From an uncultured bacterium (lineage in GTDB: Bacteria; CAIWAD01), in contig CAIWAD010000040.1 in the NCBI GenBank assembly GCA_903910645.1, positions 14,768 to 78,767 on the forward strand: a stretch of 64,000 bases of DNA, written 5' to 3'. The notes under the pieces were generated by a model. The model was not told where the DNA came from. It was given only the letters and a program-made list of their open reading frames with translations, and did not search any database. Shown here piece after piece: positions 7,375 to 53,047 of the stretch. Position 1 is the stretch's first letter. Every line of letters starts with the position of its first letter. The position numbers were made by a program, and so were the translations under genes.

Positions 7375-7530
7375 CAACAGCTCTCGTTCTCGGATTCCCC
7401 CCGCCATGGGCGGGCGCTGTCTTCCCAGCGAAAGCTGGGATCACCTGTCACCGAAATGGCCTGCCCCCGCAGCGGCTCTCGTCCACGAGTCTCGGTTCAA
7501 TCCGCGATCAAGGAGCTGCGATCCCAATCC
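7375..7530 (+). repeat. Dispersed structured intergenic repeat, copy D (partial or rearranged; CTTCCCAGCGAAAGCTGGGATC hairpin)
   Basis: Shares GCGCTGTCTTCCCAGCGAA with copy C and GCTCTCGTTCTCGG with copy B. Confidence 0.55.
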
Positions 7531-7555
7531 TTCAGCGGTGTGTTGTCCATCAATC

Positions 7556-8740
7556 TCAACGCCCAATGCTGGCAGGGCCGTTTTCCAGGGCTCCGCCGCC
7601 TTGGGGAGTGAAGAGCTGCAGGAAGCGGGACTCCTCTTTTTCCCAGCACAAGTCCTGTGCCGCCGCTTCCAGCGCGGCCTGCCAGGTGGATTCCCGGGCA
7701 GGATCCAGCAGAATCGTGAGCTGGGCGGCAATGGCCGCCGCATTCTGGGGATCGGCACAGCGTCCCAATCCACGGCCCAGCACCACCGATGCGGTCTCCG
7801 GCAATGGGCTGGCCAACACGGGCAGACCGGCCTGGATGTATTCGAAGAGCTTGTTGGGCAGCAGGTAGCGATAGGAGAGACCCAGGTCCGGCACCATCAC
7901 CGTGCCGGCGTCGCAGCCTCGCAACAGGCCGTCCAATTGGTGGCCCGGGACCTTTCCCGCCAACAGCACCCGCTCCTTCCATGGCAATGTGGAGGCGTGG
8001 CGGCGGTGCAATTCCCATTGCGGGCCGTCACCCAGCATGAGCAGGTTCACCCCCCGGCCCTTCTCCTCCAGCAGGCCCACGGCGTCCATGAGCGGCCGGA
8101 AATCATAACCGGGCCAGAATCCGCCGGCATAGACCACTACGGGCCCTTGGCCCAGCGTGGGCCACAGACGGCCCAACTGGTGGCGACGCGTGGCTTCCCG
8201 TGGCCGCCAGGACAGGGCGGGCACATTGCGCACCACGGCCACCTCGCGGGAGAGGTGGTAGTCCTCCTGCAAGGCCCGGGCGATGGAGGCGCACACGGCA
8301 CAGGAGGCATCGGCTTGGCGCATGCCCCGCCCCTCTGTCCATTTCCAGACGGCGGTCATGAGGGGGCGGCTGCGCACAGTGGGCAACTCGCTCCAGTATT
8401 CCCTGGCATCGTACACCAAATGGAAAGGCCGACTGGCGCGCGCGCGCAGGGCCGGTCCCAGGGCGGGGGGATCCACGGCCAACACGGCGTGGGGCTTCTC
8501 CTGCAGGATCAGGCGGTGGAACCAGCCCATGAAACGCAGGAAGTAGAGCTTGCCGCCCAGGGCGCGGGAGGCCTGCAGGCGGTGCAGCGGGCGCTCCTTC
8601 CAGAAGTCCGAAAGCGGGGCTTCCCCGTTGTCAACCCAGGTGGCGCTCACCTGGTGGCCGGCGCGCTCCAGGCTCTCCACCATGCGTTCCTGGCGGCGCT
8701 CGTGGGACAATTCGGAGAGAATGCCCATCAGGATGCGCAT
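7556..8740 (-). CDS. Glycosyltransferase family 1 (GT-B)
   Basis: MRILMGILSELSHERRQERMVESLERAGHQV... and C-terminal GT1 motifs; ATG at 8738-8740 with GGAGG RBS; overlaps the upstream stop by 13 nt. Confidence 0.7.
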   Translation of the reverse strand: MRILMGILSELSHERRQERMVESLERAGHQVSATWVDNGEAPLSDFWKERPLHRLQASRALGGKLYFLRFMGWFHRLILQEKPHAVLAVDPPALGPALRARASRPFHLVYDAREYWSELPTVRSRPLMTAVWKWTEGRGMRQADASCAVCASIARALQEDYHLSREVAVVRNVPALSWRPREATRRHQLGRLWPTLGQGPVVVYAGGFWPGYDFRPLMDAVGLLEEKGRGVNLLMLGDGPQWELHRRHASTLPWKERVLLAGKVPGHQLDGLLRGCDAGTVMVPDLGLSYRYLLPNKLFEYIQAGLPVLASPLPETASVVLGRGLGRCADPQNAAAIAAQLTILLDPARESTWQAALEAAAQDLCWEKEESRFLQLFTPQGGGALENGPASIGR

Positions 8741-10263
8741 GGGCCGCCTCCCCATTGGACATCCTCCTCCAGCCGCCGCGCCCGGGCTCTCCAATGGTCG
8801 GCCACCGCGCCCATCCCGCCCACCCAGCAATCAGGTTGATCCAGCCTTGCCAGCAGGCTTTCGAAGTGCTCGCGGCGTCCGGGAAAGTCCTCGCGACACA
8901 TGGTGTGAGGGTGCCAGTTCACCGTCAACAGGCCGCCCACCCGGCGCACCTGCTCCATCACTTCCTCCGCCTGGCGTCTGGCGGCCAGGGGCGCAAGCTT
9001 CTGCTCATCGTAGAGTTGGCTGTCCATGAGCAGCAGGGGAAGCTCCAGCAGATTCAGAGCGTGACCCTCTTCATTCAAAGGATGGAAGGGCAGGCTGGTT
9101 CCCGCGCGGAAGCCTGGACGATCGTTGAAGCCCAGACTGCTGTCCACGCACAGGCCCGCCTGCATTTGGGCCGGCCAGGTGTGCTGGATGTTGAAACGCA
9201 GCCAGTGCTGGCGCGTGACAAGGGGTTTGCTTCCCATGGCGCGCTCCAGCTGCCGCGCCTGTTCTTTCATGCGCCTGGCGCTCATGCAGGATGTCCAGCC
9301 GCCGTGCAGACCCACTTCCACGGCCTGCTCCCGCAAGCGCGCCAGAAGTCCGCGCACCTGGGCCCTGCCCAACTGGTAGCGATAGGTCTGATGATCCCGC
9401 GGCTCCGCCAGGAAGAGCAAGGTGGACACCAGACCATGGCGCTGTTCCAGCTCCACCATTTCATCCACCAGAAACCAGGGATCCTGCCCCGTGCGCAGAC
9501 GCAGGCGCAACTCCTTCCAGCGATTGCGGAGCTGGGCCTGGCGATGATCCAGGGCGTGCAGCGGACTTTCCAGCAGAAGGCGCACCACCGTGCGCAAACG
9601 CCACTTGAAGAGCATGTCCACATCATGGCTCAGGCAGGCCGCCCAGGAGGCCCCGCCCGGCCAGCGCGGCAAGGATGTCGGCAATTGGCCGGCATCCACA
9701 TCCAGCAGCCGTGCCAGCAGACGCAGCAGGCGATCCACCCAGGGCGTCAAGGCCAAGTGGCGGGCATCCGGCGGCAAAGCGTCCAGCAGGGCCTGTCTCC
9801 ATGCATCGCCCCCGGGTCCCCGCTCCACATGACGCATCAGGGTATGGGCCAGGGGTTGCAGTGGATCGAAGCCCAGCTGCAGCAGGGTCTGCCCGCCCCG
9901 CATGGCCCAGCTGACAGGTGCCCCGCCTCCCATGTAGCGCCAGGGAAGCTCCCCCAGTCGGGGAAAGCGCACGGGTGAACCGAAGACGGGAATGGGTCCA
10001 GGCTCGATCCAGTCGCTGCGCAGGGACGCCTCTCCTTCTCCACTTACAGGCAGATAGAGCACGATGCGCACGGTGGGGGGAATCTGGAACTGGCCCGGAC
10101 TTCCCAGCACCAGCACGCGCTCCACGGGCCGGTGGGCGGGATCGTAGGGCCGCAGGCGCACTCCAAGCCCTGTCTGCAGAAAACGCAGCAGGGCGGGCAA
10201 CCAGGGGCGCTGGGGATTGGCATCGGCTCCCAGGCAGCCGATCTCCATCAGGGTGTGGGCCAT
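8728..10263 (-). CDS. Putative polysaccharide deacetylase-like protein (511 aa) with an uncharacterised N-terminal half
   Basis: Motifs SHDVD, LHGGWTS, QHWLRF, PGFRAGTSLPFHP resemble the polysaccharide deacetylase / CE4-related superfamily; embedded among glycosyltransferases; ATG verified at 10261-10263. Confidence 0.45.
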   Translation of the reverse strand: MAHTLMEIGCLGADANPQRPWLPALLRFLQTGLGVRLRPYDPAHRPVERVLVLGSPGQFQIPPTVRIVLYLPVSGEGEASLRSDWIEPGPIPVFGSPVRFPRLGELPWRYMGGGAPVSWAMRGGQTLLQLGFDPLQPLAHTLMRHVERGPGGDAWRQALLDALPPDARHLALTPWVDRLLRLLARLLDVDAGQLPTSLPRWPGGASWAACLSHDVDMLFKWRLRTVVRLLLESPLHALDHRQAQLRNRWKELRLRLRTGQDPWFLVDEMVELEQRHGLVSTLLFLAEPRDHQTYRYQLGRAQVRGLLARLREQAVEVGLHGGWTSCMSARRMKEQARQLERAMGSKPLVTRQHWLRFNIQHTWPAQMQAGLCVDSSLGFNDRPGFRAGTSLPFHPLNEEGHALNLLELPLLLMDSQLYDEQKLAPLAARRQAEEVMEQVRRVGGLLTVNWHPHTMCREDFPGRREHFESLLARLDQPDCWVGGMGAVADHWRARARRLEEDVQWGGGPCAS

Positions 10264-15969: not shown

Positions 15970-16160
15970 GCTCGATCCCTGGAGTCCATCCCAGCGTCAA
16001 CTGCGTTCCTTGAGCACGGTGTTCCCAGCGAAGGCCGGGTTCTCTTGTCAGCATGAACTCCCGCTTCACGGGAATGACAGGTCAGGTCCTGAGAGCTCGT
16101 TCACTCCCGGCGGCTCGCGTACTCGAGCACGAGGCCCGAGTACGAGGAGAGAGCTGCCGG
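15970..16160 (+). repeat. Dispersed structured intergenic repeat, copy E (core ACTCCCGCTTCACGGGAATGACAGG)
   Basis: Contains the TTCCCAGCGAAGGCCGGG module and the CTCGAG-rich flank. Confidence 0.6.
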
Positions 16161-17616: not shown

Positions 17617-17617
17617 A

Positions 17618-33790: not shown

Positions 33791-33827
33791 AAACCCGCAG
33801 CCCAGCGCCTTCCAAAGAGGGGAAGCC

Positions 33828-39047: not shown

Positions 39048-39184
39048 TTCCCCACTCTTGCGGAAAATCTGCGCCTTTTGCGGTTCGAAAGCCAATGAAG
39101 CTTGAGCCTTGCAAGGGTTTGGCGCCTTTGAAGAGGCCAAGATCCTGGTGCTTTCCCCATGCAGGACTGGCTTCCTGGCTGGGG

Positions 39185-39237
39185 TCAGTCCCGAATTCCG
39201 AATGAGAAAGTGCCGCTTTCGGGACATGACCAGGTCC
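39185..39237 (+). repeat. Dispersed structured intergenic repeat, copy F (3' module only: GTGCCGCTTTCGGGACATGACCAGGTCC)
   Basis: It abuts the ybgF stop codon. Confidence 0.45.
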
Positions 39238-39240
39238 ACA

Positions 39241-40011: not shown

Positions 40012-40053
40012 GCACATCTCCTTGGAAAGCCCACCTGGGAATGCTCCCAGGGC

Positions 40054-41391
40054 CTACTCCACTTTCACCGGCTCCCAACTGGGGTTCTCACCACCGCCGC
40101 GGCTGATCTGCCGGCGACCGGTGCCATCCGCCATCATCACCCATACTTCATTTTTCCAGGTATAGGCCAGATGCTGACCGTCCGGTGACCAGCGCGGATC
40201 GAAGTGATTGCCCACCTCATCCGTCAGACGCACCCAGTCGCTGCCGTCCGGGCGCATTTGGAAAATCTGCCAGCCGTTGCGCTCCCGGCTGATGAAGGCG
40301 ATCCATTCCCCGTCCGGTGACCAGCTGGGGCAGTCGCTGCCCGTGCCCACAAAACTGATGCGTTGTTCGTCCATGCCGTCCACCATCACGGTGTAGAGCT
40401 GCAGGCTGCCACTGCGGTCGCTGCTGAACACCAGATGGCGGCCGTCCGGGGCCCAGGACGGATTGGTGTCGATGGCCTGATGCCGGGTCAGGCGGCGCGG
40501 TTCGCCCGTGCGGCGCCCGGTGGCGGGATCCATGGGGATGAGGTACAGGTCGGTGTTGGCGTTCACGGTGGCGGCGCAGGCCAGCCAGCGGCCATCGGGG
40601 GACCAGGCGGGGGCGGCTTCCGATTCCCGGCCGCCCAGCACCAGTTCCGCTTCGCCACCCGCCACCGGGCCGCTCCAGATGTCGGCGCCCCGCTCTGGAT
40701 GCACCTGGGTCCAGGCGTAGAAGCGTCCGTTGGGGCTCCAGGCGGGCATCACGCGGGTTTTGCCGCCACGACTGAGCACCAGGCGGTCTTCACCAAAGAA
40801 ATCCGCCAGCACCAGTTGGGTGCCCCCCTTGTCCGGCTGCACATAGAGCAGACGCGAGGCGAAGGGCGCCTTGTAGCCGGTAAGTAGCAGCAGAATCTCC
40901 TGGGCCATGTCCAGGGCGCGCTGTTCGGCATCGGCGCCCAGGGGCAGACTCCAGTCCGCCACCGGATCTCCGCCACTCACATTCACCAGGGCCAGGTCCA
41001 GGCGCGCGCCCTTGTCCTTCACCCTCTCCTCCAGACGCACCAGGCTGGCGGCTTCCGAGGAACTGAGCTGTTCGGCCTTGGGCTGGCCTTCCCACAATTT
41101 CAGCGTGCCCGCCAGAGCCAGTGCTTCGCGCAGGCGGTTCTCGAAGGTCTGCAAAGGAACAGAGCCCTGCAGGGCCGGCGCCAGCACAAGGCCGGGGCGA
41201 TAGTAACTGAGAGTGCGCGCCTCCAGCTTCACTTCCGGCACGGCGCCGGGCGGGAAGAAGCCGCCCTCGGGCACCTTGTCCTCGGCCCTTGCATCCCACG
41301 CGGACACAAGCACCAACAGGAAGAGCAGGACACAAAGCGTGGGAAGCGCATGTCCGGCGCTTGCCCGGCGGGGGGGATTACTCGTCCACAA
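40054..41391 (-). CDS. tolB: Tol-Pal system beta-propeller protein TolB
   Basis: Repeated WSPDG...L.F beta-propeller blades (WSPDGRWLA, WAPDGRHLVF, WSPDGEWIAF, WSPDGQHLAY); the start appears to be TTG at 41391. Confidence 0.85.
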   Translation of the reverse strand: MWTSNPPRRASAGHALPTLCVLLFLLVLVSAWDARAEDKVPEGGFFPPGAVPEVKLEARTLSYYRPGLVLAPALQGSVPLQTFENRLREALALAGTLKLWEGQPKAEQLSSSEAASLVRLEERVKDKGARLDLALVNVSGGDPVADWSLPLGADAEQRALDMAQEILLLLTGYKAPFASRLLYVQPDKGGTQLVLADFFGEDRLVLSRGGKTRVMPAWSPNGRFYAWTQVHPERGADIWSGPVAGGEAELVLGGRESEAAPAWSPDGRWLACAATVNANTDLYLIPMDPATGRRTGEPRRLTRHQAIDTNPSWAPDGRHLVFSSDRSGSLQLYTVMVDGMDEQRISFVGTGSDCPSWSPDGEWIAFISRERNGWQIFQMRPDGSDWVRLTDEVGNHFDPRWSPDGQHLAYTWKNEVWVMMADGTGRRQISRGGGENPSWEPVKVE

Positions 41392-42112
41392 AGGTGAAAG
41401 TCACTCCGATTTTGTCATAGGGGAAGGCTGGCGGCAAGGGCGGCAACTGGGCGCGCATCAGGGCGCTGCGCCCGGCCAGATCCAGGCCCGGCAAGCCCGA
41501 TTCCACCACTTGCTCCAGATCCTCGACATGTCCCGCGCGGTCAATGATGAAATGAAAGACCGCGCGCTTGCCACTGGAGCGGGCTGGGTACTTGAAGGCC
41601 CGCTGGATGCCGTTTTCCACCCGTGTCAGGTACTGGCTCATGCCTGGCGCGTCGGGCTGATCGGACAAGGCGCCAGTGCGGCTGCTGCCTTGCCCACGGG
41701 GTCCGGCGCCCGTGTCCCGCGTCCTGCCCTGGCGTCCATCGGTGGGCAGGGCCTGCTCAGACTCCCGGGTAGGGGTCCTGGGTTCCCGTGCAGGCGCTTT
41801 TTGTGGGGCGGCAGCTGTGGACGGCGTGCGCGCCAGGGTGGGTTCCTTGCGCGCCGGAGCAGGCGCCTCCTCCACCACGGCTTCGGTCTCGGGTTCCGGC
41901 TTGGCGGGTTGGGGATCCGGACTCATGTCCTCGGAGACCCAGCCGGCCTTGCCCTGGCCGCCACCCGCCAGGCGCACCATGCGGATCTGGTAGGCCTGCT
42001 CCTGCTTCCAGCGTGGCCCGCCCCACCACAACAAGGCCAGCAGAATGCCGTGAAGGGCAAGGGAGAAGAGCAGGAAGCGGCCCTGGAAGACGCCGCCGGA
42101 GGATGAGCTCAT
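41378..42112 (-). CDS. tolA: TolA/TonB-family energy-transducer protein
   Basis: N-terminal TM anchor, Pro/Ala/Glu-rich linker, C-terminal TonB/TolA-like domain (...RVENGIQRAFKYPA...GVTFTFVDE). Confidence 0.65.
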   Translation of the reverse strand: MSSSSGGVFQGRFLLFSLALHGILLALLWWGGPRWKQEQAYQIRMVRLAGGGQGKAGWVSEDMSPDPQPAKPEPETEAVVEEAPAPARKEPTLARTPSTAAAPQKAPAREPRTPTRESEQALPTDGRQGRTRDTGAGPRGQGSSRTGALSDQPDAPGMSQYLTRVENGIQRAFKYPARSSGKRAVFHFIIDRAGHVEDLEQVVESGLPGLDLAGRSALMRAQLPPLPPAFPYDKIGVTFTFVDE

Positions 42113-42546
42113 GGACGGGCGTCGGGGGAGGGGGGCTCGGTCATGAGGCCCACATCCTCGAAACCCGCCTCCCGGATGCGATCCAGCAGGGCCACCACCT
42201 CGCCATAGGCCACTCGTTCGTCGGCGGCCAGGAAAATGGGTGTGCGCCGGGCGGCCGTGCTGTCGCCACCTTGCAGGGGCAGGGCCTGGGCCAGCAGTCG
42301 CTCGCCCAGTTCCTGCGCCCGCACGGGATCGCGACCCAGCACCAGCTGGCCGTCACGCCGCAATTCCACGGTAATGCCCGTGTCGCCCCGGCGACTGCCG
42401 CTTTCGGATTGGGGCAAACCCACTTCCAGCGCCGTTTTGAGCACGGGCGCGGTGATCATGAAAATCACCAGCAACACCAGGAAAACGTCCACCAGGGGAG
42501 TGACGTTGATCTCGGACAGGGGGCCCCGGTCGGGCGCGGCCTTCAT
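42109..42546 (-). CDS. tolR: TolR/ExbD biopolymer transport protein
   Basis: MKAAPDRGPLSEINVTPLVDVFLVLLVIFMITAP...; the ATG at 42544-42546 overlaps the tolQ stop (ATGA); the ORF-track upstream extension is rejected. Confidence 0.8.
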   Translation of the reverse strand: MKAAPDRGPLSEINVTPLVDVFLVLLVIFMITAPVLKTALEVGLPQSESGSRRGDTGITVELRRDGQLVLGRDPVRAQELGERLLAQALPLQGGDSTAARRTPIFLAADERVAYGEVVALLDRIREAGFEDVGLMTEPPSPDARP

Positions 42547-43211
42547 GCCGGTCCCACCTCCCGCACCAGGGCGGTCACGAGCTCTTTCAGGGATTCGCAG
42601 CGCTCCCGCAGGCGGCGGGAAGAGGCCAGGAAGTAGTTGTAGGCAATGGTGGCGGGAATGGCCGTGGCCAAGCCCACCACTGTGGCGATGAGGGCTTCGG
42701 CGATGCCCGGCCCCACCACTTCCAGCATGGCCTGGCCCTGCTGATTGCCAATGCGCAGGAAGGCCACCATGACGCCCCACACCGTGCCCATCAGGCCAAT
42801 GAAGGGGCTGGAGCTGCTCACCGTGGCCAACAGGCTTAAGTGACGATCCGCTTCCGCCATGGTCTTGCGCTCGGCGGTGGACAACACGCCTTCCCACACG
42901 GCGGCGGGAGGCAGGGGACGGCCACTGGGCGGACCGCCCTGGGGGACATGCGGCAGCAGGCGGCGAACCGCCTGCTGCAGCATGCGGGCGCTGGGCGCCC
43001 CTTTGTGATGCTCGGCCAATCGCACCAGATCGGGCAAGCCCCGCACCTGGTCGGCGCCTTCCTCAAAGGCCGTCTCGGCCTCCTTGGAGCGCCGGAAATA
43101 CCGGATGCGATCCAGGATGGCCGTCCAGCTGAGCACGGAGAGCAGCACCAGGATCAACAGCACGGCCTTGGAAAAGAGCGATGCGTGAGCGACAAAGCCC
43201 CAAAGACTCAT
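42543..43211 (-). CDS. tolQ: TolQ/ExbB/MotA-family proton channel
   Basis: MSLWGFVAHASLFSKAVLLILVLLS...SPFIGLMGTVWGVMVAF... Confidence 0.85.
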   Translation of the reverse strand: MSLWGFVAHASLFSKAVLLILVLLSVLSWTAILDRIRYFRRSKEAETAFEEGADQVRGLPDLVRLAEHHKGAPSARMLQQAVRRLLPHVPQGGPPSGRPLPPAAVWEGVLSTAERKTMAEADRHLSLLATVSSSSPFIGLMGTVWGVMVAFLRIGNQQGQAMLEVVGPGIAEALIATVVGLATAIPATIAYNYFLASSRRLRERCESLKELVTALVREVGPA

Positions 43212-43819
43212 GGATTAAGGGCCTTGAACTCGCAGCGGCGATTCTTGGACCAGGCGGACTCGTCATGGCCGGCGTCCACAGGCTGGGACTTGCCGAAGGA
43301 GATGGTCTCGAAACGGGCTTCGTCCAGGCCCAGGTTCACGAAATATCCCTTCACGGCATTGGCGCGCTTGTCGCCCAGGGCCAGGTTGTAGGCCACGCTG
43401 CCATTCTCATCGCAATGGCCTTCCAGCTTCACGCGCAGATCGCCATAAGTGCGCAGCAGGTCCCCGTGGGAGGCCAGCGTGGCGCGGGTGTCCTCGCGCA
43501 GCTCGAAGCGGTCGAAATCGAAATAGACAGCACCCAGGCTGCCAACGGCATTGGCGCGTGCCAAACGGACCTGCTCCTCGGCCTGGGCCTTGGCGCGCTC
43601 GGCGGCGGCCAGGCGCTCGGCCTCGGCGGCGGCGGCGGCACGCTGGGCCTCAAGACGGGCAGCCTCATCGGCGGCAGCCTTGGCGGCGGCATCGTCCACC
43701 TGCTCCGACTGGGTCAGCTGCTGCTCGGCAGCGGGATCCACCTTCTTCTTGCATGCCGTGCTGCCCAGTCCGGCGGCCACCACCAGGGCGACCAACAGGG
43801 CGGTACGCAGAGTGTTCAT
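43208..43819 (-). CDS. pal: Peptidoglycan-associated lipoprotein (OmpA-family C-terminal domain)
   Basis: Lipobox LGSTAC; Ala/Glu-rich linker; OmpA-like domain (VYFDFDRFELREDTRATL...LEGHCDENGSVAYNLALGDKRANAV). Confidence 0.8.
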   Translation of the reverse strand: MNTLRTALLVALVVAAGLGSTACKKKVDPAAEQQLTQSEQVDDAAAKAAADEAARLEAQRAAAAAEAERLAAAERAKAQAEEQVRLARANAVGSLGAVYFDFDRFELREDTRATLASHGDLLRTYGDLRVKLEGHCDENGSVAYNLALGDKRANAVKGYFVNLGLDEARFETISFGKSQPVDAGHDESAWSKNRRCEFKALNP

Positions 43820-45216
43820 GCGTCGAACTCCTCGATTTGGGGCCAGGAAAAGATCTTGGCCGGGTTCAGAATATTGTTTGGGTCAAAAAGCCGTTTGATG
43901 TTCATCTGCAGCTGCTCACTTTGCGGAGACAGCTCAATGCCAATATAAGGCTGCTTCCAGCAACCCACACCATGTTCGGCGGTGATGGTTCCCCCAAAAT
44001 CCACGGCCAGCCGGAAGATTTCCTCCACCACCTGCCACATGCGCGCCAGGGAAGCCTCTCCCTCCTCCCTGGACAACACATTCACATGCAGATTGCCGTC
44101 CCCAAGATGTCCGTATGCCAGCACATGCACGCCCTTTGCTTGTCCCAGGCGTCGACACGCCTCCAGGCATTCCTGCAACCGATCCAGGGGCACGGCGATG
44201 TCTTCCGACAATTTCTGTGCGAAGCGTTCCCGCGTGGTGTGCGACAACCTGCGGCGAACCTCCCACAAACGCGCGGCCTTTTCGCCGCCTTCGGCCATCC
44301 ACACATCCAGGGCTCCAGCCTCCCCGCACAGATGTCCCAGACGCTCCGCCAGCTCCTCCGCCTCAGCGCGCCCGCCGTCCGCCTCCAGGAGTAGAAGGCT
44401 GCGGCACCCCTCTGGCAGAGCCATGGGCAGGTCACCGCGCACCAGCTCCACCGCCGCCTCGTCCATGAATTCCAGGGCGGAAGGCGTCAGTCCTTCCCGG
44501 TTGATGGTGGCGGCCAGAGCGCAGGCGGAGGCCGAATCGGGCAGCAGGGCCAACAGGGTAAGGGTGCGGGCCGGCTTGGGCTGCAGGCGCAACACCATGC
44601 GCGTGATCACCGCCAGGGTGCCTTCACTGCCAATGAGCAAATCGCGCAGGCTGTAGCCCGCCACACCCTTGCGCGTGCGGGGGCCACAAGTAATGACCTC
44701 GCCGGAAGGCAGCACGGCCTCCAGTTGCAACACATAGGCCCGCGTGACGCCGTACTTCACACAGCGTGGCCCGCCGGCGTCCTCCGCCACATTGCCGCCC
44801 AGGCTGCTGGACTCCCATGATGCAGGATCAGGCGGGTAGAAGAGGCCATGGGGGGCGGCGGCCTCCTGCAATTGGAAGTTGATCACTCCCGGCTCCACCA
44901 CGGCCCAGCGGTTGACGGGATCGATCTCCAGAATGCGGTTGAACCGCGCCATGCTGAGCACCACTCCGCCCCGCACAGCAAGCGCGCCACCGGACAATCC
45001 GGTCCCCGCTCCACGAGGCGTCACCGGCACCTTGTGGCGATTGGCCCAGCGCAGCAAGGCCTGGATGTCCGCCACGCTGCGGGCCTCCACCACTGCATGG
45101 GGAAGGTAGGGCACCTTCAGCTCGTCGGCGGCAAAGGCGACGCGGCGCTCGTCCAAAATGAGCGAAGCCGCTCCCACGGCGGCCTCCAGCTCGCGCAGCT
45201 GTTCAGCGCTCAACAT
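43816..45216 (-). CDS. FAD-linked oxidase (glycolate oxidase GlcD / D-lactate dehydrogenase family)
   Basis: FAD-binding PCMH domain motifs (PRGAGTGLSGGA...), C-terminal FAD-oxidase domain; GGAGG RBS; start-stop overlap with pal. Confidence 0.8.
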   Translation of the reverse strand: MLSAEQLRELEAAVGAASLILDERRVAFAADELKVPYLPHAVVEARSVADIQALLRWANRHKVPVTPRGAGTGLSGGALAVRGGVVLSMARFNRILEIDPVNRWAVVEPGVINFQLQEAAAPHGLFYPPDPASWESSSLGGNVAEDAGGPRCVKYGVTRAYVLQLEAVLPSGEVITCGPRTRKGVAGYSLRDLLIGSEGTLAVITRMVLRLQPKPARTLTLLALLPDSASACALAATINREGLTPSALEFMDEAAVELVRGDLPMALPEGCRSLLLLEADGGRAEAEELAERLGHLCGEAGALDVWMAEGGEKAARLWEVRRRLSHTTRERFAQKLSEDIAVPLDRLQECLEACRRLGQAKGVHVLAYGHLGDGNLHVNVLSREEGEASLARMWQVVEEIFRLAVDFGGTITAEHGVGCWKQPYIGIELSPQSEQLQMNIKRLFDPNNILNPAKIFSWPQIEEFDA

Positions 45217-45337
45217 CCAGCCTCCAAGACTCTCTCAGCAGCTCTCCTGCCCGAGCCGCGGGTTCTTTCAATGCGCAGCGCATGTCTCCTCTCCAGTCCG
45301 CCAGGGCGGAGGCCTTCAACGCTTCGCATTGAAGGTG

Positions 45338-45768
45338 AAGGCAACCTTTCTGTCGCGCCAGAAAGGTTGCGCCAAAGAGCGCTCTCCAAGACCCGGCGCG
45401 CTGAAGCGGACGGCTTCCCGGCCGTCCTTGGCAGCGCGCATTGAGCCCAAGGGGACGCCATGGCAGTTGGTTCCGGCCTGTCGGCCGTCACCGGGAATTC
45501 CCGCCACCGCAACATCTCCCTGGATTCGGGCCTTGAGATCCTACTCGGCGCAAATGCAACCTTTCTGTCGCGCCAGAAAGGTTGCGCCAAAGAGCGCTCT
45601 CCAAGCCCCAGCGCGCTGAAGCGGCCGGCCTCCCGGCCGTCCTTGGCAGCGCGCATTGCGCCCAAGGTGACGCCATGGCAGTTGGTTCCGGCCTATCGGC
45701 CGTCACCGAGAATTCCCGCCACCCAACATCTCTCGGACTCGAGTCTTGAGATCCTTCTCAGCCAGTGG
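45338..45768. repeat. Tandem direct repeat, 2 copies of 215 bp at ~90% identity. Each unit holds a 10-bp-stem hairpin AACCTTTCTG-TCGCGC-CAGAAAGGTT and the palindrome AGAGCGCTCT
   Basis: The period was measured between identical landmarks (45343 vs 45558; 45501 vs 45716); non-coding. Confidence 0.8.
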
Positions 45769-45930
45769 CTCTCGTTCGCGGGTTCGCTGCGCGAGTCCTC
45801 AATCGTGTCATCCCAGCCAAGGCTGGGATCTCGCGACAAAACAGATTCCCGCTTTCGCGGGAATGACAGGTCCAATTCAAGCTTTTCAACGCATCAGCTC
45901 CCCTCCTCAAGATGTGCGACTCGAGGAGGA
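45716..45930 (+). repeat. Dispersed structured intergenic repeat, copy B (contains ATTCCCGCTTTCGCGGGAATGACAGG at 45845-45870)
   Basis: Shares ordered modules with copies at 7375, 15970, 33648, 39185 and 52897. Confidence 0.7.
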
Positions 45931-45946
45931 TCGATGACCAGGGGGG

Positions 45947-47179
45947 CTACTTTCCTGCGAATTCCCTCTCATAGAGACCATGCAGGAAGCGCATCAGCTC
46001 TTCCTCGCAGGAAGCAAGCGTCAAGCCCCGACGCTCTTTCACAATGCGTGCCGTGGCCAGGGCTTTTTCCAAATCATATGCGTCAATGCCATCCTGGGGT
46101 CCGCCCCAGGAGAAGGGCGGAACTTCCTTTGGGGGAAAACCGCCGCCCCAGATGTTGGCGAACAGGCCCACCACGGTGCCGGTGTTGAACATGGTGTTGA
46201 TGCCGGTCTTGGCGTGGTCGCCCATCATCAGGCCCACGAAGCGCTGGCCCGTGTCCACTTTCTGGCCGCGCAGGCTGACCTGCACTGCGCCGTAGTTGTT
46301 CTTCAGGTCGCTGTTGTTGGTGTCCGCCCCCAGGTTGGTCCATTCACCCAGGTAGGCGTGGCCCAGGAATCCGTCGTGCTGCTTGTTGGCGTATCCCTGC
46401 AGGATGCTCTCCGCCACCTCACCGGCCACACGGCAACAGGGCCCCAGGTGGTTGCCACCCAACAGGCGCGTGCCAGCCTTCAACCGGGATCCCTCGCCAA
46501 TGAAGCACGGCCCTTCCACCACGCAGAAAGGGCCAATCTGCACGCCGCGGTCAATGACAATGGGTCCATGGGAGGCATCCAGCACACAATAGGGCGCCAC
46601 GGTGGCGCCGGCCTCGATGTGGATGCGTTCGGCGGCCAGGAAGCGCACACTCAAGTCCACGCCTTCCGGTGGAGCGGCGTCTCCCAGGAGTTGCAGGCGC
46701 TCTTCCAGATATGGGAAATCCGCCTCCGCGGCTTGCGGCAGCACATGCACGAGGTCCCACAGGCGCTGGGCCAACACCATGCCCTCCGGGCATTCCATGA
46801 TGTCCAGCTCCGGCCCTCCGCCATCCAGGTGGGCCAGGCCATCCGCCTCCAGGCGCGCCGCCATCAGCACATCATCCTCGGAAAGAATGCCCTGACCGGG
46901 TTCAAGGGAGAGCACGGCCTCGGCGTCCAGCTCCAACAGGCGGCCGTTCACCATCAGGATGTCCCCACCCTCCTCAAACTCAGGCTGGCCCAACCCCAGA
47001 CGCGCTGCCACCGCCTGCAAGGGTCCTCGGCACAGGCCGCCGGAGGCCACCATTCCCAGGCGCCATTCCAGGCGCTCCCGCAGGGTGCCCAGCCCTGTGC
47101 GCAGGTCCCACACAGGGCGCAGTTCCGTCAAGGGATAGAAATCCCGCACCTGGGGATCTTCGAAGAGGATCAGTCTCAT
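45947..47179 (-). CDS. Left-handed beta-helix (hexapeptide-repeat) protein with an N-terminal nucleotidyltransferase-like region (GlmU-like putative sugar-phosphate nucleotidyltransferase/acyltransferase)
   Basis: Hexapeptide repeats in the C-terminal half (...EWTNLGADTNNSDLKNNYGAVQV...GINTMFNTGTVVG...); ATGA overlap with parB. Confidence 0.5.
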   Translation of the reverse strand: MRLILFEDPQVRDFYPLTELRPVWDLRTGLGTLRERLEWRLGMVASGGLCRGPLQAVAARLGLGQPEFEEGGDILMVNGRLLELDAEAVLSLEPGQGILSEDDVLMAARLEADGLAHLDGGGPELDIMECPEGMVLAQRLWDLVHVLPQAAEADFPYLEERLQLLGDAAPPEGVDLSVRFLAAERIHIEAGATVAPYCVLDASHGPIVIDRGVQIGPFCVVEGPCFIGEGSRLKAGTRLLGGNHLGPCCRVAGEVAESILQGYANKQHDGFLGHAYLGEWTNLGADTNNSDLKNNYGAVQVSLRGQKVDTGQRFVGLMMGDHAKTGINTMFNTGTVVGLFANIWGGGFPPKEVPPFSWGGPQDGIDAYDLEKALATARIVKERRGLTLASCEEELMRFLHGLYEREFAGK

Positions 47180-48063
47180 GAGGCGTCCATGGCTTGCAGC
47201 AGTTCCACCAGGCGATCCAGCTCCTCCCGGGTGTGATACTCAATGCGGATCTGCCCGCGGTTGCGGTTGGGGCTGATGCTCACGCGGGCACCCAGGCAAC
47301 CGCAGAGGTTTTCCTCCGCCTGCAGGATGTCGAAGGGCTTCACCACCGCCGGCGCGGGTTGGGCCTCACGCTGGCGGCGCACCAGCTCCTCCAGTTGGCG
47401 GACGCTTAAATCCCGCTTCACGCAGAGCTGCCAGCAGCGGATTTTCTCATCGTCCGAGCCCAGGCCCAGCAACACCTTGGCGTGGCCGAAGGAGATCTTG
47501 CCCTCCTTCAGACTGACCTTGATCACCGTGGGCAGCTTGTTCAGGCGCAGCAGATTGCTCACCGCCGGGCGGCTCATGCCCAGGGTCTGGCCCAATTCCT
47601 CCTGGCTCATGCCGTGCTCCTCAATTAGCACGCGCAGACCGTTGGACAAGTCCAGGGGGTGCAAATCCTCGCGCTGGATGTTCTCCAACAGGGCCAGCTT
47701 CATCAACCCGCCTTCGTCCGGCCGCTCCCGCACAAGGGCGGGAATGGTCTTGCGTCCGGCAAGCTGGCTGGCGCGCCAGCGGCGCTCGCCGGCGATGAGC
47801 GTGTACAGGCCGCCGTCCTCGAAGACCAGCACGGGCTGCAACACGCCATTGGCGCGGATGCTCTGGGCCAGCTCCTCCAGCTCGGCGGATTCAAAGTCCC
47901 GTCGGGGCTGCTGGCGGTTGCGATTGATCAGTTCCAGGGGCAGCTGATGCACGCGCTCGCCGTCGGGAAGAGAAGGCTCGGTGGCTTGCGTGGCAAGAGC
48001 GGTGTCGGCGGGCTTTTGAATGAGGGCCGATAGGCCTCTACCCAGTGGTTTGGACCGATTCAT
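47176..48063 (-). CDS. parB: Chromosome partitioning protein ParB/Spo0J
   Basis: ParB box motifs (...YTLIAGERRWRASQLAG...), HTH (MSQEELGQTLGMSRPAVSNLLRL); ATG 48061-48063. Confidence 0.9.
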   Translation of the reverse strand: MNRSKPLGRGLSALIQKPADTALATQATEPSLPDGERVHQLPLELINRNRQQPRRDFESAELEELAQSIRANGVLQPVLVFEDGGLYTLIAGERRWRASQLAGRKTIPALVRERPDEGGLMKLALLENIQREDLHPLDLSNGLRVLIEEHGMSQEELGQTLGMSRPAVSNLLRLNKLPTVIKVSLKEGKISFGHAKVLLGLGSDDEKIRCWQLCVKRDLSVRQLEELVRRQREAQPAPAVVKPFDILQAEENLCGCLGARVSISPNRNRGQIRIEYHTREELDRLVELLQAMDAS

Positions 48064-48814
48064 CAAGGATCTCCTGGGCCAGGGCGATGTAGTTCTGGCT
48101 GCCCGGGCTGCCCGCGTCGTAGAGCAGGATGGGCTTGCCGTGGCTGGGGGCCTCGCCCAGCTTCACATTGCGGCGGATGATGCTGGAGTACATGCGGTCG
48201 CCGAAGTGGTCCTCCACTTCCTTGCGCACCATGTTGCACAGATTCAGGCGGCTGTCGTACATGGTAAGCACCACGCCACGCACCACCAGCTGCGGGTTCA
48301 GGCTTTCGCGCACCAGCTCGATGGTGTTCAGCAGCTGGCTTAGACCCTCCAGTGCGTAGTACTCGGCCTGGATGGGGATGATCACGCCGTCCGCCGCGCA
48401 CAGGGTGTTCACGGTGAGCAGGCTCAAGGAGGGTGGGCAGTCAATGAGGATGTACTCATAGTCCGCCGCCACCTGGGCCAGTGCTTTCTTCAGACGATAC
48501 TCGCGGCCAAGCGCGGCCACCAGCTCCACTTCCGCCCCCACCAGACGCATGCTGCTGGGCAGGATGTCCAGCCCCTCGATCTGGGTGGGATGAATGGCCT
48601 CCCGCACTTGGGAGGGATCCAGCAGGCATTCGTAGACGCAGGGACGCCCGTCCTCCCGCTCCAACCCGCTGCCACTGGAGGCATTGGCCTGGGGATCCAT
48701 GTCCACCAGAAGCACACGGCGCTCCGAGACAGCCAGGCAGGCGGCAAGATTGACGGCGGTGGTGGTTTTGCCAACTCCACCCTTTTGATTGGCAAACGCA
48801 ATGATTTCAGCCAT
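48038..48814 (-). CDS. parA: Chromosome partitioning ATPase ParA/Soj
   Basis: Deviant Walker A IIAFANQKGGVGKTTTAVNLAA; ATG 48812-48814; overlaps parB by 26 nt. Confidence 0.9.
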   Translation of the reverse strand: MAEIIAFANQKGGVGKTTTAVNLAACLAVSERRVLLVDMDPQANASSGSGLEREDGRPCVYECLLDPSQVREAIHPTQIEGLDILPSSMRLVGAEVELVAALGREYRLKKALAQVAADYEYILIDCPPSLSLLTVNTLCAADGVIIPIQAEYYALEGLSQLLNTIELVRESLNPQLVVRGVVLTMYDSRLNLCNMVRKEVEDHFGDRMYSSIIRRNVKLGEAPSHGKPILLYDAGSPGSQNYIALAQEILDESVQTTG

Positions 48815-49170
48815 GGCCGAATATAGGAAGGGGGAAGCGCCTTCCGCAGGGGCATCCCGCGCGGATGGACGCCCAGCCACGGATTTGGAGGTTTGCGTCA
48901 AGGCCAATGGGCGATGTTCTGTTTAAGATCTGTTCAGTGGTGACCGATTTGCAACATTTCGCAGAATCTTCTGTTCATTTTCATAACATTTTCACCATGA
49001 AATGGGCGGCAGAAACATCCAATTATCAGCAACATCCATAGTCTATTCATACAATTTTTAACGATTTCTATCGGGAATTTCCACCGACTGGCCTGATTCT
49101 TGCCAATATCTCTCCATCAACCCGCTTGGCGGGCTTGCACACAGCACATTTTCAACCATCGGAGTCCATC
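48815..49170. promoter_or_regulatory. AT-rich intergenic region between parA (leftward) and the first plus-strand gene, holding a strand-orientation switch point
   Basis: Local GC is visibly far below the ~69% background (runs such as TTCATTTTCATAACATTTTCACCATGAAAT, CAATTTTTAACGATTTCTATCGG); no canonical DnaA box or parS was found. Confidence 0.4.
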
Positions 49171-50658
49171 ATGAAACAGGCGCTTGTCTTGTCCCTGGTG
49201 CTTGGGCTGTCCCAGGCGGTTCTGGCAGAGGAATACTCCCAATGGAAGGCGTCGCAGGGGCCCTCGGGCGCCCAGCGCAGCTTCCTTTCCGTGAGCAACG
49301 GGGCCGTGGAGGCCCATGTGGGTGAACTGGGCACAGGCAACACGGGCCGCTTCACCATCGGCACGGGGGCGGGCGAATACCTGCTTTACGGCCACGGTGG
49401 CGACCCGTGGAGCAGCTATGTGCGCATCCGTGTGGATGGTTTGGTGTACGCCCCGGAGGGCGGCGGTCTCTTTGATGTGGCCATGTTGCCCGTGGCGGGA
49501 CCGGCCATTGTGGGCAATGGCATCGTCACATCGTGGAGTGCCGATGGCGTGATGCTCACACAGACCCTGACGCCGGTGATGGTGAACGGCGAAGGCACTG
49601 TGGCCATTGATTACGAGGTATTGAACACCAGCACCTATGGACGCGAGGTCTCGGTGATGCTGGAAATGGACACCATGGTGAACTGGAATGACGCGGCGCC
49701 CATTTCCACCAGCAATGGCTACATCGCTGTGGAAAGCTGCTATACCGGCGGTCAGGTGCCCAACACCTGGCAGGCCTTTGAAGAAAGCCCCACCCAGGAT
49801 CCCAGTCTATTGGTGGGTTGTGGCATCCTGAACGGCTTCGGCGCCACCCTACCGGACTTCGCAGCCTTTGGTGCCTGGGGCAATGTGTACGGTGGCCCCT
49901 TCGACTTTGTTTGCTCGGGCTACGGCTACGGCGACAGCGGCTGCCTGCTGCGCTGGAACGCCGGCCTGATGATGCCGGGCCAGGGCGATTCCTATAAGAC
50001 CTTTTACGGAACCTGCACCGAATACACGGTGCCTGGTGAGCTAAGCCTGAGTCTGGGCGGCACCACGGCCCTGAGCTGCCAGAATGGCGAGATTGAGCCC
50101 AATCCCTTTGATGTGAACCTGCTGGTGACGAATACGGGTGGCGAGCTTTGCCACGATGTGGTGGCCACCGTCTACCCGGGCGCTGGCTTGATCGGCGGCG
50201 CGCCGGTGTGGATTGGCGACCTGGCCCCCGGTGGCGTGGGCGCGGCCTCCTTCTTCATCACGGCAATGGAGCCCTATTGCGACTACTGGGGCTTCTACAC
50301 GGTGGAAGTGACATCGGCGGACTGCCCGGGCAATGTGATCAGCCGGGAGATCTGGGTGCCCTGCTGCGATGCTGTGAACGCACCTGAGCAGGTTCTTGCC
50401 TTCCAGCTGGGCGCGGCCCATCCCAATCCCTTCAACCCGGTGACCACCCTCTCCTTCACCATGGCGGAGACCGGTGCGGCCACCCTGGCGGTGTTCAACC
50501 TGGCGGGCGTGGAAGTGGCCCGTCCCTTCAACGGCCTGGCGGAGCGGGGCGAGCACGCGCTGACCTTCGACGCCAGCGGCCTGCCCAGCGGCATCTACCT
50601 CTACACCCTGAGCACGGCCCAGGGCGTGCAGACGAGGAAGATGATCCTGACCAAGTAG
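49171..50658 (+). CDS. Secreted protein with a C-terminal T9SS-CTD/FlgD-Ig-like sorting domain (cargo paralog 1)
   Basis: ATG 49171 with GGAG 7 nt upstream; signal peptide MKQALVLSLVLGLSQAVLA; C-terminus ...HPNPFNPVTTLSFTMAETGAATLAVFNLAGVEVARPFNGLAERGEHALTFDASGLPSGIYLYTLSTAQGVQTRKMILTK. Confidence 0.65.
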   Translation: MKQALVLSLVLGLSQAVLAEEYSQWKASQGPSGAQRSFLSVSNGAVEAHVGELGTGNTGRFTIGTGAGEYLLYGHGGDPWSSYVRIRVDGLVYAPEGGGLFDVAMLPVAGPAIVGNGIVTSWSADGVMLTQTLTPVMVNGEGTVAIDYEVLNTSTYGREVSVMLEMDTMVNWNDAAPISTSNGYIAVESCYTGGQVPNTWQAFEESPTQDPSLLVGCGILNGFGATLPDFAAFGAWGNVYGGPFDFVCSGYGYGDSGCLLRWNAGLMMPGQGDSYKTFYGTCTEYTVPGELSLSLGGTTALSCQNGEIEPNPFDVNLLVTNTGGELCHDVVATVYPGAGLIGGAPVWIGDLAPGGVGAASFFITAMEPYCDYWGFYTVEVTSADCPGNVISREIWVPCCDAVNAPEQVLAFQLGAAHPNPFNPVTTLSFTMAETGAATLAVFNLAGVEVARPFNGLAERGEHALTFDASGLPSGIYLYTLSTAQGVQTRKMILTK

Positions 50659-50696
50659 CAACCCCGTGCGGCACCCCAACCGCATCAACCTGGGAG

Positions 50697-50728
50697 CCCG
50701 GCGGAGTGCCTGCCGCCGGGCCCCGTTT
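50697..50728 (+). terminator. Putative intrinsic terminator after cargo paralog 1 (CCCGGCGG-AGTGCCTG-CCGCCGGG, then CCCCGTTT)
   Basis: GC-rich hairpin followed by a short T-rich run; a paralogous copy follows the next gene. Confidence 0.45.
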
Positions 50729-50763
50729 ACAACCCGCGGAAGATTCCGCAGAAGGAGAGTCCC

Positions 50764-51681
50764 ATGCATCGTGCCACGACACCTGTCCTGACCCTGGCGG
50801 CCGCCCTGCTTTTGGGGAGCTTGGCAACCGCCCAGGCGGAGACCATCACCCTGCGCAGTGGCAATGGCCCTGCCGGTGGCCCCGACGCTGTCCTGACCTT
50901 TTTTCAAGGTCCACTGGACGGCGAGTTCAGTGTTCCCTTCACGCCCATTGACTACGCCAGCGCCCTGGCTGGCCCGCCGGCAGAGATCCTGACCCAGCTC
51001 AACGGCGCATGGACGCCCACGCTGGTGGCGGATCCCCTGGCCCAATGGGTTTCGGATAGCCAATCCGGTGCATGGAGCGGCAGCACAAACCTTTACGCCA
51101 TTCCTTTCGTGGTAAGCAGCGCGGTGGTCAGCTCCGCCACGCTGGACTTTCACTTCCTGTGTGACAACTGGGTGGGCGAGTACTACGCCAACATCAACGA
51201 GGGACTCCACCTCAATGGGTCGAGTGTGGCTGGCACCATTGGCGGCAACTACGCCAACGAGACCAATTGGTACAGCATCCCCGTCACCGGCCTGGTGAAC
51301 CCCGGCCCCAATGTGCTCTATGTGCTGTCCAGCGATGTGGGCGGACCTGGTGGCATTGTGTTCAGCGCCACCCTGCGCATCAATGGCGATGGCACCGTGG
51401 ACGCGCCGGAGAGCGCGCAGGCTTTCCAGCTGGGCGAAGCCTATCCCAATCCCTTCAACCCGGTGACCACCCTTTCCTTCACCATGGCTGAGACTGGCCC
51501 CGCCACGCTGGCGGTGCACAATCTGGCGGGTGTGGAAGTGGCCCGTCCCTTCAGCGGCATGGCGGAGCGTGGAAGCCACGAGCTGACCTTCGACGCCTCG
51601 GCCCTGCCCAGCGGCATCTACCTCTACACCCTGAGCACGGAGAGCGGGGTGCAGACGCGCAAGATGATCCTGACCAAATAG
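50764..51681 (+). CDS. Secreted protein with a near-identical C-terminal sorting domain (cargo paralog 2)
   Basis: GGAGAG RBS; signal peptide; C-terminal 85 aa >90% identical to the preceding gene's CTD; unrelated N-terminal domain. Confidence 0.65.
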   Translation: MHRATTPVLTLAAALLLGSLATAQAETITLRSGNGPAGGPDAVLTFFQGPLDGEFSVPFTPIDYASALAGPPAEILTQLNGAWTPTLVADPLAQWVSDSQSGAWSGSTNLYAIPFVVSSAVVSSATLDFHFLCDNWVGEYYANINEGLHLNGSSVAGTIGGNYANETNWYSIPVTGLVNPGPNVLYVLSSDVGGPGGIVFSATLRINGDGTVDAPESAQAFQLGEAYPNPFNPVTTLSFTMAETGPATLAVHNLAGVEVARPFSGMAERGSHELTFDASALPSGIYLYTLSTESGVQTRKMILTK

Positions 51682-51714
51682 CGTCCTTGCGGCACCCCTG
51701 CCGCTTCTACCTGG

Positions 51715-51750
51715 AGCCCGGTCGCCAACACGGCCGGGCTCTTCTTTATT
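51715..51750 (+). terminator. Putative intrinsic terminator after cargo paralog 2 (AGCCCGG...CCGGGCT, then CTTCTTTATT)
   Basis: GC hairpin followed by a T-rich tract. Confidence 0.55.
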
Positions 51751-51866
51751 GTCTGTCGCCAAAGCCGGATTGCTGAGCCGTCGGGCGATTTCCCTTCCCT
51801 GCATCGAGGGGGAGCGCCGTGGCTAAATGATATTCCCCCCATTCATTGGCAGAGCGGCGAGGCCCC

Positions 51867-52895
51867 ATGCATACGCACAGTCTGAAGACCCACCACCATC
51901 ACCATCGCACCCATGACGAGCGCCATCATGAGCGCCGTCGCACCACCCAGGTGCTGGTGCTGACCCTCATCACCATGGGGGCGGAGATCGTGGCCGGAAT
52001 GGTCACGGGATCCATGGCCCTTTTGGCGGACGGCTGGCACATGGCCACCCACGCGGCGGCATTCGCCATTGCCCTGTTCGCCTGGGATTTTGCCGAGCGA
52101 CACGGGGACAATCCGCGTTTCTCCTTCGGCACAGGGAAAGTGGGCGTGCTGGGCGGCTTCGCCAGTGCCGTGGCGCTGGCGGTGGCGGCCCTGATGATGG
52201 TGGTGGAATCCGTGATGCGCCTGCTGCGCCCGGAGGAGATCCGCTTTGGTGAGGCCATCCTGGTGGCAGTGCTGGGGCTGTCGGTGAATCTGGCCAGCGC
52301 CTGGCTGCTCTCGCGGGCGGGCGGACATGGGCACCCGCATGTGCACGGGCACGGGCACAGGCATGCGCACGAACATGAGCATGACCACACGCACGAGCAC
52401 GAGCATGCGCGCGACAGCGGCATGAACAGCGCAGGCAAAGAGGAGCACCATGGGGATCACAATTTGCGGGGTGCCTTGCTGCATGTCATGGCCGATGCCC
52501 TGACCAGCGTGCTGGCCATTGGCGCGCTCCTGGCCGGCATGTTCTGGGGCTGGAAGTGGATGGACCCAGCCATGGGTCTGGTGGGCGCTGCGCTGATCCT
52601 GCGCTGGTCGGCGGGCCTGTTGAAGGAAACCGCCCTTATCCTGCTGGATGGCGGCGCGGACAGCCAGGTGATGGAGGAAATCCGCCACAGGGTGGAGGCC
52701 GACGGGGATGCCCGCGTGGCCGACCTGCATGTGTGGCAGCTGGGACCCGGACGGCTGTCCGTGGCCATCAGTCTGGTGGCCGATCGCCCGCTGGCACCTC
52801 AGGACTACAAGGACCGCCTGGCCAGATTGCCTGGGATTGCCCATGTGGTGGTGGAAGTGAATCCCTGCGAGGCTGGTGACTGCGCAGCCACCTAA
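51867..52895 (+). CDS. Cation diffusion facilitator (CDF) family divalent-metal efflux transporter (CzcD/ZitB-like)
   Basis: Six TM helices, a His-rich cytoplasmic loop (HGHPHVHGHGHRHAHEHEHDHTHEHEH), and the C-terminal cytoplasmic domain typical of CDF; ATG 51867, or TTG at 51846 per the ORF track. Confidence 0.85.
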   Translation: MHTHSLKTHHHHHRTHDERHHERRRTTQVLVLTLITMGAEIVAGMVTGSMALLADGWHMATHAAAFAIALFAWDFAERHGDNPRFSFGTGKVGVLGGFASAVALAVAALMMVVESVMRLLRPEEIRFGEAILVAVLGLSVNLASAWLLSRAGGHGHPHVHGHGHRHAHEHEHDHTHEHEHARDSGMNSAGKEEHHGDHNLRGALLHVMADALTSVLAIGALLAGMFWGWKWMDPAMGLVGAALILRWSAGLLKETALILLDGGADSQVMEEIRHRVEADGDARVADLHVWQLGPGRLSVAISLVADRPLAPQDYKDRLARLPGIAHVVVEVNPCEAGDCAAT

Positions 52896-52896
52896 C

Positions 52897-53047
52897 TGCC
52901 CCGTACTCAAGTCTCGTGGCAGGAAGACACGGTGGGACAAGCCTCTGTCAATCCCGCGAAAGCGGGAAGCTGTGGCGAGAAAAGACCCCCGCCTTCGCTG
53001 GGAAGACAGCGCTCATTTTCGAGAGTTGCTGATGGGTGGTCGAGTTC
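52897..53047 (-). repeat. Dispersed structured intergenic repeat, copy C (inverted; the plus strand reads CTGTCAATCCCGCGAAAGCGGGAAG)
   Basis: The reverse complement aligns with copies B and D, including GCGCTGTCTTCCCAGCGAA. Confidence 0.65.

Follow-up and report, generated by a model that had tools for sequence, protein, structure and literature searches.

What is the hairpin repeat that recurs between the genes of an uncultured freshwater bacterium? The DNA concerned is a 64-kb stretch of GenBank assembly GCA_903910645.1 (contig CAIWAD010000040.1, positions 14,768 to 78,767 of the forward strand), called the window below; together with 18 kb beyond its ends, about 82 kb were examined. The host, known from metagenomes of stratified lakes to judge by the sample names, has a G+C content of about 65%; its genes include those for type IX secretion, Tol-Pal and flagella. 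An initial annotation had described six copies of a structured intergenic element placed at the 3' ends of genes, and had seen in it an undescribed terminator, a stability element or possibly a family of small RNAs. Our analysis leads elsewhere: the elements are very probably intergenic mosaic repeats, whose core is an inverted doublet of the hairpin recognised by Ssn nucleases, with an Ssn-related mechanism inferred from other organisms.

The repeat and its hairpin unit

In a pattern search of the window, TCCCGCTTTCGCGGGA with up to two mismatches was observed three times against 0.08 expected, and its extension to ...WTGACAGG four times against 0.39. Repeat finding and pairwise blastn of the intergenic regions delimit a shared core of roughly 70 nt at about 7414-7450 (copy 1), 16014-16083 (copy 2), 33708-33778 (copy 3) and 45802-45872 (copy 5), and in inverted form at 52945-53012 (copy 6). 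These five cores are linked to one another at E-values of 1e-4 to 1e-11, far above chance. The remaining proposed copy, partial copy 4 (39185-39237, plus strand), is at best a marginal relic: it has no match by blastn or to the covariance model described below, its local-alignment score of 16 compares with maxima of 13-15 in shuffled windows, and it contains at most a very decayed right unit (GTGCCGCTTTCGGGACATGACCAGGTCC).

The core is made of two hairpin units of about 28 nt, one on each strand, which are inverted with respect to each other across a spacer of 7-8 nt and turn their GTCA ends outward. Each unit follows the same grammar: 5'-(H)GTCAT, an 8-bp stem arm, a GAAR loop, the second stem arm and ATC-3'. 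The sequence is TGTCAT-CCCAGC-CAAG-GCTGGG-ATC for the left unit (plus strand) and TGTCAT-TCCCGC-GAAA-GCGGGA-ATC for the right one (minus strand); both have 8-bp stems, two compensated pairs apart. What had been taken for two distinct hairpin modules is a single unit, present in two variants that point in opposite directions.

This unit is already in the literature, while the initial annotation could place it in no known family. The 28-nt NTS, CGTCATTCCCGCGMAVGCGGGAATCYRG, includes the dRS3 repeat of Neisseria and generalises to the Ssn-related motif, SRM (Chenal et al. 2025, Nat Commun, PMC11893778). SsnA, a small GIY-YIG nuclease with a single domain, binds and cuts NTS solely when the DNA is single-stranded, and its gene typically has NTS hairpins on either side; ssn is present in 81% of the genomes that have over 200 SRMs (PMC11893778). 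The right unit of copy 5 (TGTCATTCCCGCGAAAGCGGGAATCTGT; 45837-45872, minus strand) agrees with the NTS consensus at 26 of 28 positions and contains an exact dRS3 (ATTCCC-N8-GGGAAT, 45845-45864), the sole one in the window. Like published SRMs, the elements are multi-copy and intergenic: there are five sites in the about 82 kb, all intergenic, with no further SRMs in the 18 kb beyond the window ends, and one more copy of the same lineage in another metagenome (L144).

The published SRM regular expression, HGTCWYN(0-2)YYVSBRHN(0-5)WNVSBRGN(0-2)RNCYNB (PMC11893778), has exact matches at 45841-45868 and 52981-53008, both on the minus strand, against an average of 0.72 per window in shuffles; the remaining units miss it by 1-3 positions. 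Because the strict expression found only these two, we turned to a covariance model. Scanning one genome per species with TCCCGCTTTCGCGGGWWTGAC yielded at least 120 loci or stretches; among the matches listed are Alpha-, Beta- and Gammaproteobacteria, Dehalococcoidia, candidate-phyla-radiation lineages, Bacteroidota, Planctomycetota, Zixibacteria and others. We built the model, R1, from 57 SRM units of other phyla, excluding the unit used as search bait and the window itself. Compensatory changes are evident in this alignment: 96.5% of its cells are paired, double-sided changes occur in five of the eight pairs, and no shuffle reached its pairing or covariation score.

Applied to the 64-kb window, R1 finds eight units, at 40.4, 29.7, 24.6, 23.0, 19.9, 14.8, 13.5 and 11.1 bits. 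All eight fall at the five claimed sites, five of them with E<=1.4e-3 and three with E 0.05-0.6; nothing appears elsewhere in the window at E<0.7. On 1.5 kb around the gonococcal ssnA homologue, the same model returned 12 NTS units at 32.7-49.3 bits. The top window unit lies within this range, so the best units of the window score like genuine NTS.

The copies differ in how much of the doublet they retain. In copy 5, the left unit (TGTCATCCCAGCCAAGGCTGGGATCTCG; 45802-45837, plus strand; 29.7 bits, E 1.6e-6) has a perfect 8-bp stem on folding, with two compensated pairs relative to the right unit (40.4 bits, E 1e-9), which passes the strict expression; the hairpins of this copy are stable, with folding z-scores of -3.6 to -5.2. 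Copy 6, inverted as a whole, combines a canonical-type unit at 52942-52977 (plus strand; 24.6 bits, E 5e-5) with a CCCAGC-type unit at 52977-53012 (minus strand; 11.1 bits), which bears two mismatched pairs and contains the other exact regular-expression match. This pair can alternatively fold as one long hairpin (z -4.3). In copy 1, alignments and R1 identify the left unit (7414-7449, plus strand; 23.0 bits, E 1.6e-4); the right one is deleted or unrecognisable. Both units of copy 2 are damaged: the left (16014-16049, plus strand) is degenerate, with an A-C stem mismatch, and is recognised by a partial R1 match at 16024-16039 (13.5 bits, E 0.12) and by blastn to copies 5 and 6, while the right (16049-16083, minus strand; 14.8 bits, E 0.05) has a 1-nt deletion in loop or stem. 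Finally, copy 3 keeps a right unit at 33744-33778 (minus strand; 19.9 bits, E 1.4e-3), and its heavily decayed left unit (33708-33744, plus strand), which has no R1 match, is recognisable solely through alignment to the other copies (repeat families D3 and D4).

The composite element, its gain and its decay

The doublet is not peculiar to this bacterium. Inverted SRM pairs are seen often among the listed cross-phylum matches: of the adjacent pairs at those loci, 51 of 73 are outward-facing +/- pairs, with spacers mostly of 5-50 nt. At three loci (L063, L114 and L115), where we read the bracketing sequences directly, the outward-facing pair encloses a GIY-YIG gene of about 96-109 aa. All three proteins have a confirmed Pfam PF01541 domain, the one from L115 being 63% identical to the Neisseria gonorrhoeae ssnA locus; with L064, where tblastn finds an ssn-like gene, the bracketed loci number four. 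Since its arrangement matches these ssn-bracketing pairs, the doublet resembles a miniature SRM-ssn-SRM cassette from which ssn is missing, standing to the full cassette as a REPIN or MITE stands to its autonomous parent.

SRM hairpins elsewhere often bear on their outer side tandem partial copies of the outer half (...GCGGGAATGAC, 2-4 times), for example at L126 3640-3800, L012, L029, L063 1575-1700 and L163 149-200. These tandems look like traces left at the cleavage side by slippage or by successive rounds of cutting and rejoining.

In the window, the doublet is accompanied by a 17-nt module M with the consensus CAGCTCTCGTYCNCGAG. Allowing up to three mismatches, the pattern search gives nine matches against 1.4 expected, all on the plus strand, all within element-bearing intergenic regions and on both sides of the cores. 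Copy 1 has one to the left of its core (7378-7394) and one to the right in direct orientation (7473-7489), the latter also matched by blastn to the left flank of L144. A module lies right of the copy 2 core (16111-16127) and another left of the copy 3 core (33650-33666, found by flank blastn as well). Copy 5 has two on its left (45727-45743 and 45766-45782) and one on its right (45895-45911). The CTCTCG/CTCGAG-rich flanks noticed at the outset are therefore real, but their supposed inverted sense, like that of terminal inverted repeats, does not hold: with all nine matches on one strand, module M is a direct repeat in copies 1-5. The true inverted repeat is the hairpin pair itself, and the composite runs module M, doublet, module M over about 150-200 bp. 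Folding of whole elements (~200 nt) gave no consistent pairing of the flanks.

Directly beside copy 5, positions 45341-45759 hold a 215-nt tandem repeat of 2.0 copies at 92% identity, each unit opening with a 30-nt palindromic GCAACCTTTCTGTCGCGCCAGAAAGGTTGC whose arms are 93% complementary. The repeat has no Rfam match above noise. A contig from the same population in a different assembly (L159) has three 215-nt units, and several short contigs end within the region.

How old are the copies? A metagenome scan with the doublet pattern returned 21 loci, and L144 was the sole one of the same lineage. Across the six same-lineage copies (five in the window and L144), 79% of stem cells are paired; the changes break pairs instead of compensating them, and covariation beyond shuffles is absent on every measure, unlike in the alignment of units from other phyla. 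Strain-level contigs of 97.4-100% identity all carry the elements, without presence/absence polymorphism. Polymorphic positions number 7/373 in the cores and 43/1241 in other intergenic DNA, with 2.0% in genes, and give no clear signal of selection. One apparent structural variant, in L158, was rejected as a short assembly duplication that lies inside the PMT gene and away from the element.

A more distant contig, L163, whose TldD is 86% identical, is missing the element at both comparable orthologous sites. At the site of copy 1 its GT4-type and GT2 genes are separated by a gap of 9 nt, and its tldD-fliL spacer is devoid of the element and unrelated to copy 2. At another site, L163 has an SRM variant of its own, CGTCATCCCGGCGAAAGCCGGGACC. 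No module M was found in 81 kb of relatives' sequence. Taken together, the element-free sites and the absence of module M indicate that the composite was gained or amplified after the split from the nearest sampled relative, and its copies are now decaying. We also note a palindromic repeat of another kind, GGACCTATAGGACCTATGGGACTCATAGGTCCTATAGGTCC, which takes the place of the SRM element in the tldD-fliL spacer of L163 (L163 6835-6880).

Mobile DNA, transcript ends or small RNAs

The Ssn-hairpin mechanism is established only for Neisseria and three other homologues (PMC11893778). Transferred to this bacterium, where we consider it the likeliest mechanism, it would start when DNA becomes single-stranded, for instance during replication, transformation or repair, and the hairpin extrudes. 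A cognate Ssn would then bind the hairpin together with the C after it, and cut a few bases 5' of GTC. In Neisseria, such cutting restricts incoming transforming DNA, and it may also drive the spread of the repeats. As a consequence of Ssn recognition, the doublet could have been amplified as a non-autonomous derivative; in the present lineage it would have spread with the 17-nt module M as the ~150-200 bp composite. Any effects on mRNA 3' ends would be a by-product of the stable GC-rich hairpins. A stronger version, in which the M-doublet-M composite is a non-autonomous mobile element, amplified in trans by an unseen Ssn-type GIY-YIG nuclease and inserted with fixed polarity to transcription, we put forward as a speculative extension with a fairly low chance of being right.

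Several observations weigh against the elements being SRM doublets spread by an Ssn nuclease. The strict published expression is passed by only 2 of about 10 window units. The window and the 18 kb flanking it contain neither ssn nor any other GIY-YIG gene, so that a cognate nuclease in the organism is unproven; the Pfam-annotated gene lists of the same DNA contain no transposase either. The explanation assigns no role to module M. The evidence for mobility is indirect: with the 3' end of the GT4-type gene diverged in L163, neither precise empty-site boundaries nor target duplications can be defined. Finally, all five informative copies have one orientation to their flanking genes, where a strand-symmetric doublet acting at the DNA level predicts none. 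As for possible carriers, ssn-like genes are rare in plasmid records (33/72,556, several being mislabelled chromosomes) and GIY-YIG matches in phages are distant only, which leaves no obvious vector for spread.

The orientation deserves a closer look. All five copies are intergenic, lying 35-110 nt past a stop codon, and nearly all genes of the window lie on the minus strand. The initial annotation had every copy in the same sense relative to its upstream gene. This holds for the four copies between co-directional genes and for the extra copy L144, giving five of five informative copies alike (two-sided p about 0.06), but copy 6 is uninformative: it sits between convergent genes, where the same sense is automatic. 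Each copy between co-directional genes also sits upstream of the next gene. The shared polarity is thus suggestive.

Both the distance from the stop codon and the common polarity are what one would expect of cis-acting mRNA 3'-end elements, which terminate transcription or block 3'-to-5' exonucleases, like E. coli REP, and are retained for that purpose. The stability of the hairpins, shown by the z-scores of copy 5, points the same way, as do the T-rich tails that follow the hairpins of copies 5 and 6, both flagged as terminator-like. Nevertheless, we consider this explanation improbable. A T-rich tail is absent from three of the five copies, and the window as a whole has no excess of terminator-like sites (19 vs 13 +/- 3.4 and 10 vs 11.2), copies 5 and 6 being the only ones flagged. 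Changes between copies break pairs without compensation; the two orthologous sites examined in L163 do without the element, one of them being the 9-nt gap; and core polymorphism (7/373) is not below the gene level. In addition, symmetrically arranged units of this type are found across phyla, linked to the gene of a DNA nuclease. Uncompensated pair loss, the element-free sites and the presence of only two T-rich tails leave the terminator or stability function proposed earlier unsupported.

That the doublets are genes of a small RNA family is, in our estimate, very unlikely, yet the suggestion has one precedent. FtrB of Francisella (Rfam RF02748) begins with an SRM/NTS hairpin, and its Northern probe includes GTCATTCCCGCGTAGGCGGGAATCTC, an SRM hairpin. 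It is a verified 115-nt transcript, co-oriented with its neighbour genes, and its deletion has no phenotype (PMC3091763). On the strand of its flanking genes, copy 5 aligns end to end with the FtrB model (45782-45874, minus strand; 27 bits, E 0.013 in a 251-nt search). This score is far under the gathering threshold of 66, and the other copies have no match at E<=10; an Rfam search gave no matches at gathering thresholds. Nor was any sigma-70-like promoter found in 33500-53200, and the copies are decayed. Given the silent deletion, transcription may be incidental even in Francisella. What FtrB shows is that doublets of this type can be transcribed as stable RNAs; function is not implied, and the copies of the window fall short of membership in the FtrB family.

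A classical REP/REPIN mobilised by a RAYT (an IS200/IS605-like Y1 transposase) is hardly credible: the common design, an intergenic hairpin with a conserved 5' tetranucleotide in inverted doublets that can form one long hairpin (as in copy 6), is offset by the lack of any Y1 transposase family among the Pfam-annotated genes of the window, by a GIY-YIG nuclease as the gene found between such hairpins in other genomes, and by a sequence that fits the published SRM and not the GTAG-type REP.

Relatives of the element and its surroundings

Set against the NTS/SRM system (PMC11893778), the window elements share the GTC, the 8-bp GC-rich stem, the GAAR loop and the C past the palindrome; they too are multi-copy and intergenic, with scores within the Neisseria NTS range. 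They differ in having no ssn in about 82 kb and in the degeneracy of most units, and their host, a freshwater bacterium with type IX secretion genes, is outside the symbiont and pathogen groups highlighted in that paper.

In the NIME of Neisseria, dRS3 inverted repeats lie on either side of RS elements 19-214 bp long, as a rule in arrays; NIME were reported to be Neisseria-specific (PMC1797815). Likeness lies in the combination of dRS3-type hairpins with lineage-specific filler modules in intergenic DNA, in the exact dRS3 of copy 5 and in the same +/- pairs at the gonococcal ssnA locus. However, NIME come as long arrays in which RS elements of 19-214 bp are the spacers, whereas the window has one exact dRS3 and isolated doublets with spacers of 7-8 nt, and its lineage-specific module lies outside the pair, not between units.

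The elements would work like REP, BIME and REPIN, in which a small nuclease dedicated to the repeat, and encoded between copies of it, recognises the hairpin in single-stranded DNA; inverted doublets and intergenic accumulation are shared as well. The structural analogy to REP/BIME drawn in the initial annotation is apt, the elements being intergenic mosaics around hairpin repeats. The partner of the SRM is GIY-YIG, not HUH/Y1, the motif sequence differs, and there is no RAYT in the window. Measured against MITEs, the SRM units do form an inverted repeat, but the composite is bounded by direct M modules. FtrB (RF02748; PMC3091763), lastly, resembles the elements in having, on the same strand as its neighbour genes, an SRM hairpin and after it another hairpin, and copy 5 is a weak full-length match; the window copies are without a consistent terminator tail, copy 5 reaches 27 bits against 66, and their expression is hypothetical.

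Gene calls and Pfam annotation agree with the gene names first given for the element sites. Copy 1 lies between GT4-type and GT2 glycosyltransferase genes, copy 2 between those for TldD and FliL, copy 3 between those for a GT2 glycosyltransferase and a PMT-like protein, and copy 5 between hexapeptide nucleotidyltransferase and FAD oxidase genes. Copy 6 follows a CDF transporter gene that is convergent with an OAD-beta gene. The claimed copy 4 is flanked by genes for a TPR (YbgF-like) protein and a TMEM260-like protein. Upstream of the latter, a TMEM260-like O-mannosyltransferase gene, extend 628 nt of gene-free DNA (38613-39240), without Rfam match at E<=1.

Two further repeats of the window lie inside genes. 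A 286-nt direct repeat (50374-50659 and 51397-51682, 84% identity) lies in two adjacent plus-strand genes, which are recent paralogues judging by the type IX secretion C-terminal sorting domain (Por_Secre_tail) that both carry. Internal repeats with a 1278-nt period and 77-83% identity occupy 1254-2870, in a minus-strand gene of 978 aa whose product has Ig-like and Por_Secre_tail domains. The genes parA and parB (47176-48907, minus strand) lie directly upstream of the hexapeptide transferase gene. Along the window the cumulative GC skew falls near-steadily and never reverses for long, which gives no sign of a replication origin or terminus within it.

The main value of the analysis is correct filing: a supposed undescribed RNA element is the recognition hairpin of Ssn single-stranded DNA nucleases. 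Three results go beyond the main text of PMC11893778, in which term searches find no description of the tight doublet or of module M, and Francisella is absent. First, the outward-facing doublet is dominant across many phyla among the listed loci and mirrors the hairpins that bracket ssn. Second, the doublet and a flanking module particular to one lineage can be amplified together, after which the copies are left to decay. Third, the Rfam family FtrB of Francisella opens with an SRM hairpin. If the composite is indeed a mobile element amplified in trans, it would be genomic evidence for Ssn/SRM as a transposon-like, GIY-YIG-driven family with MITE- or REPIN-like derivatives, an idea raised, not shown, in PMC11893778. 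Altogether, the doublet, its co-amplification and FtrB bear on, without settling, whether Ssn/SRM systems are selfish mobile elements or domesticated ones.

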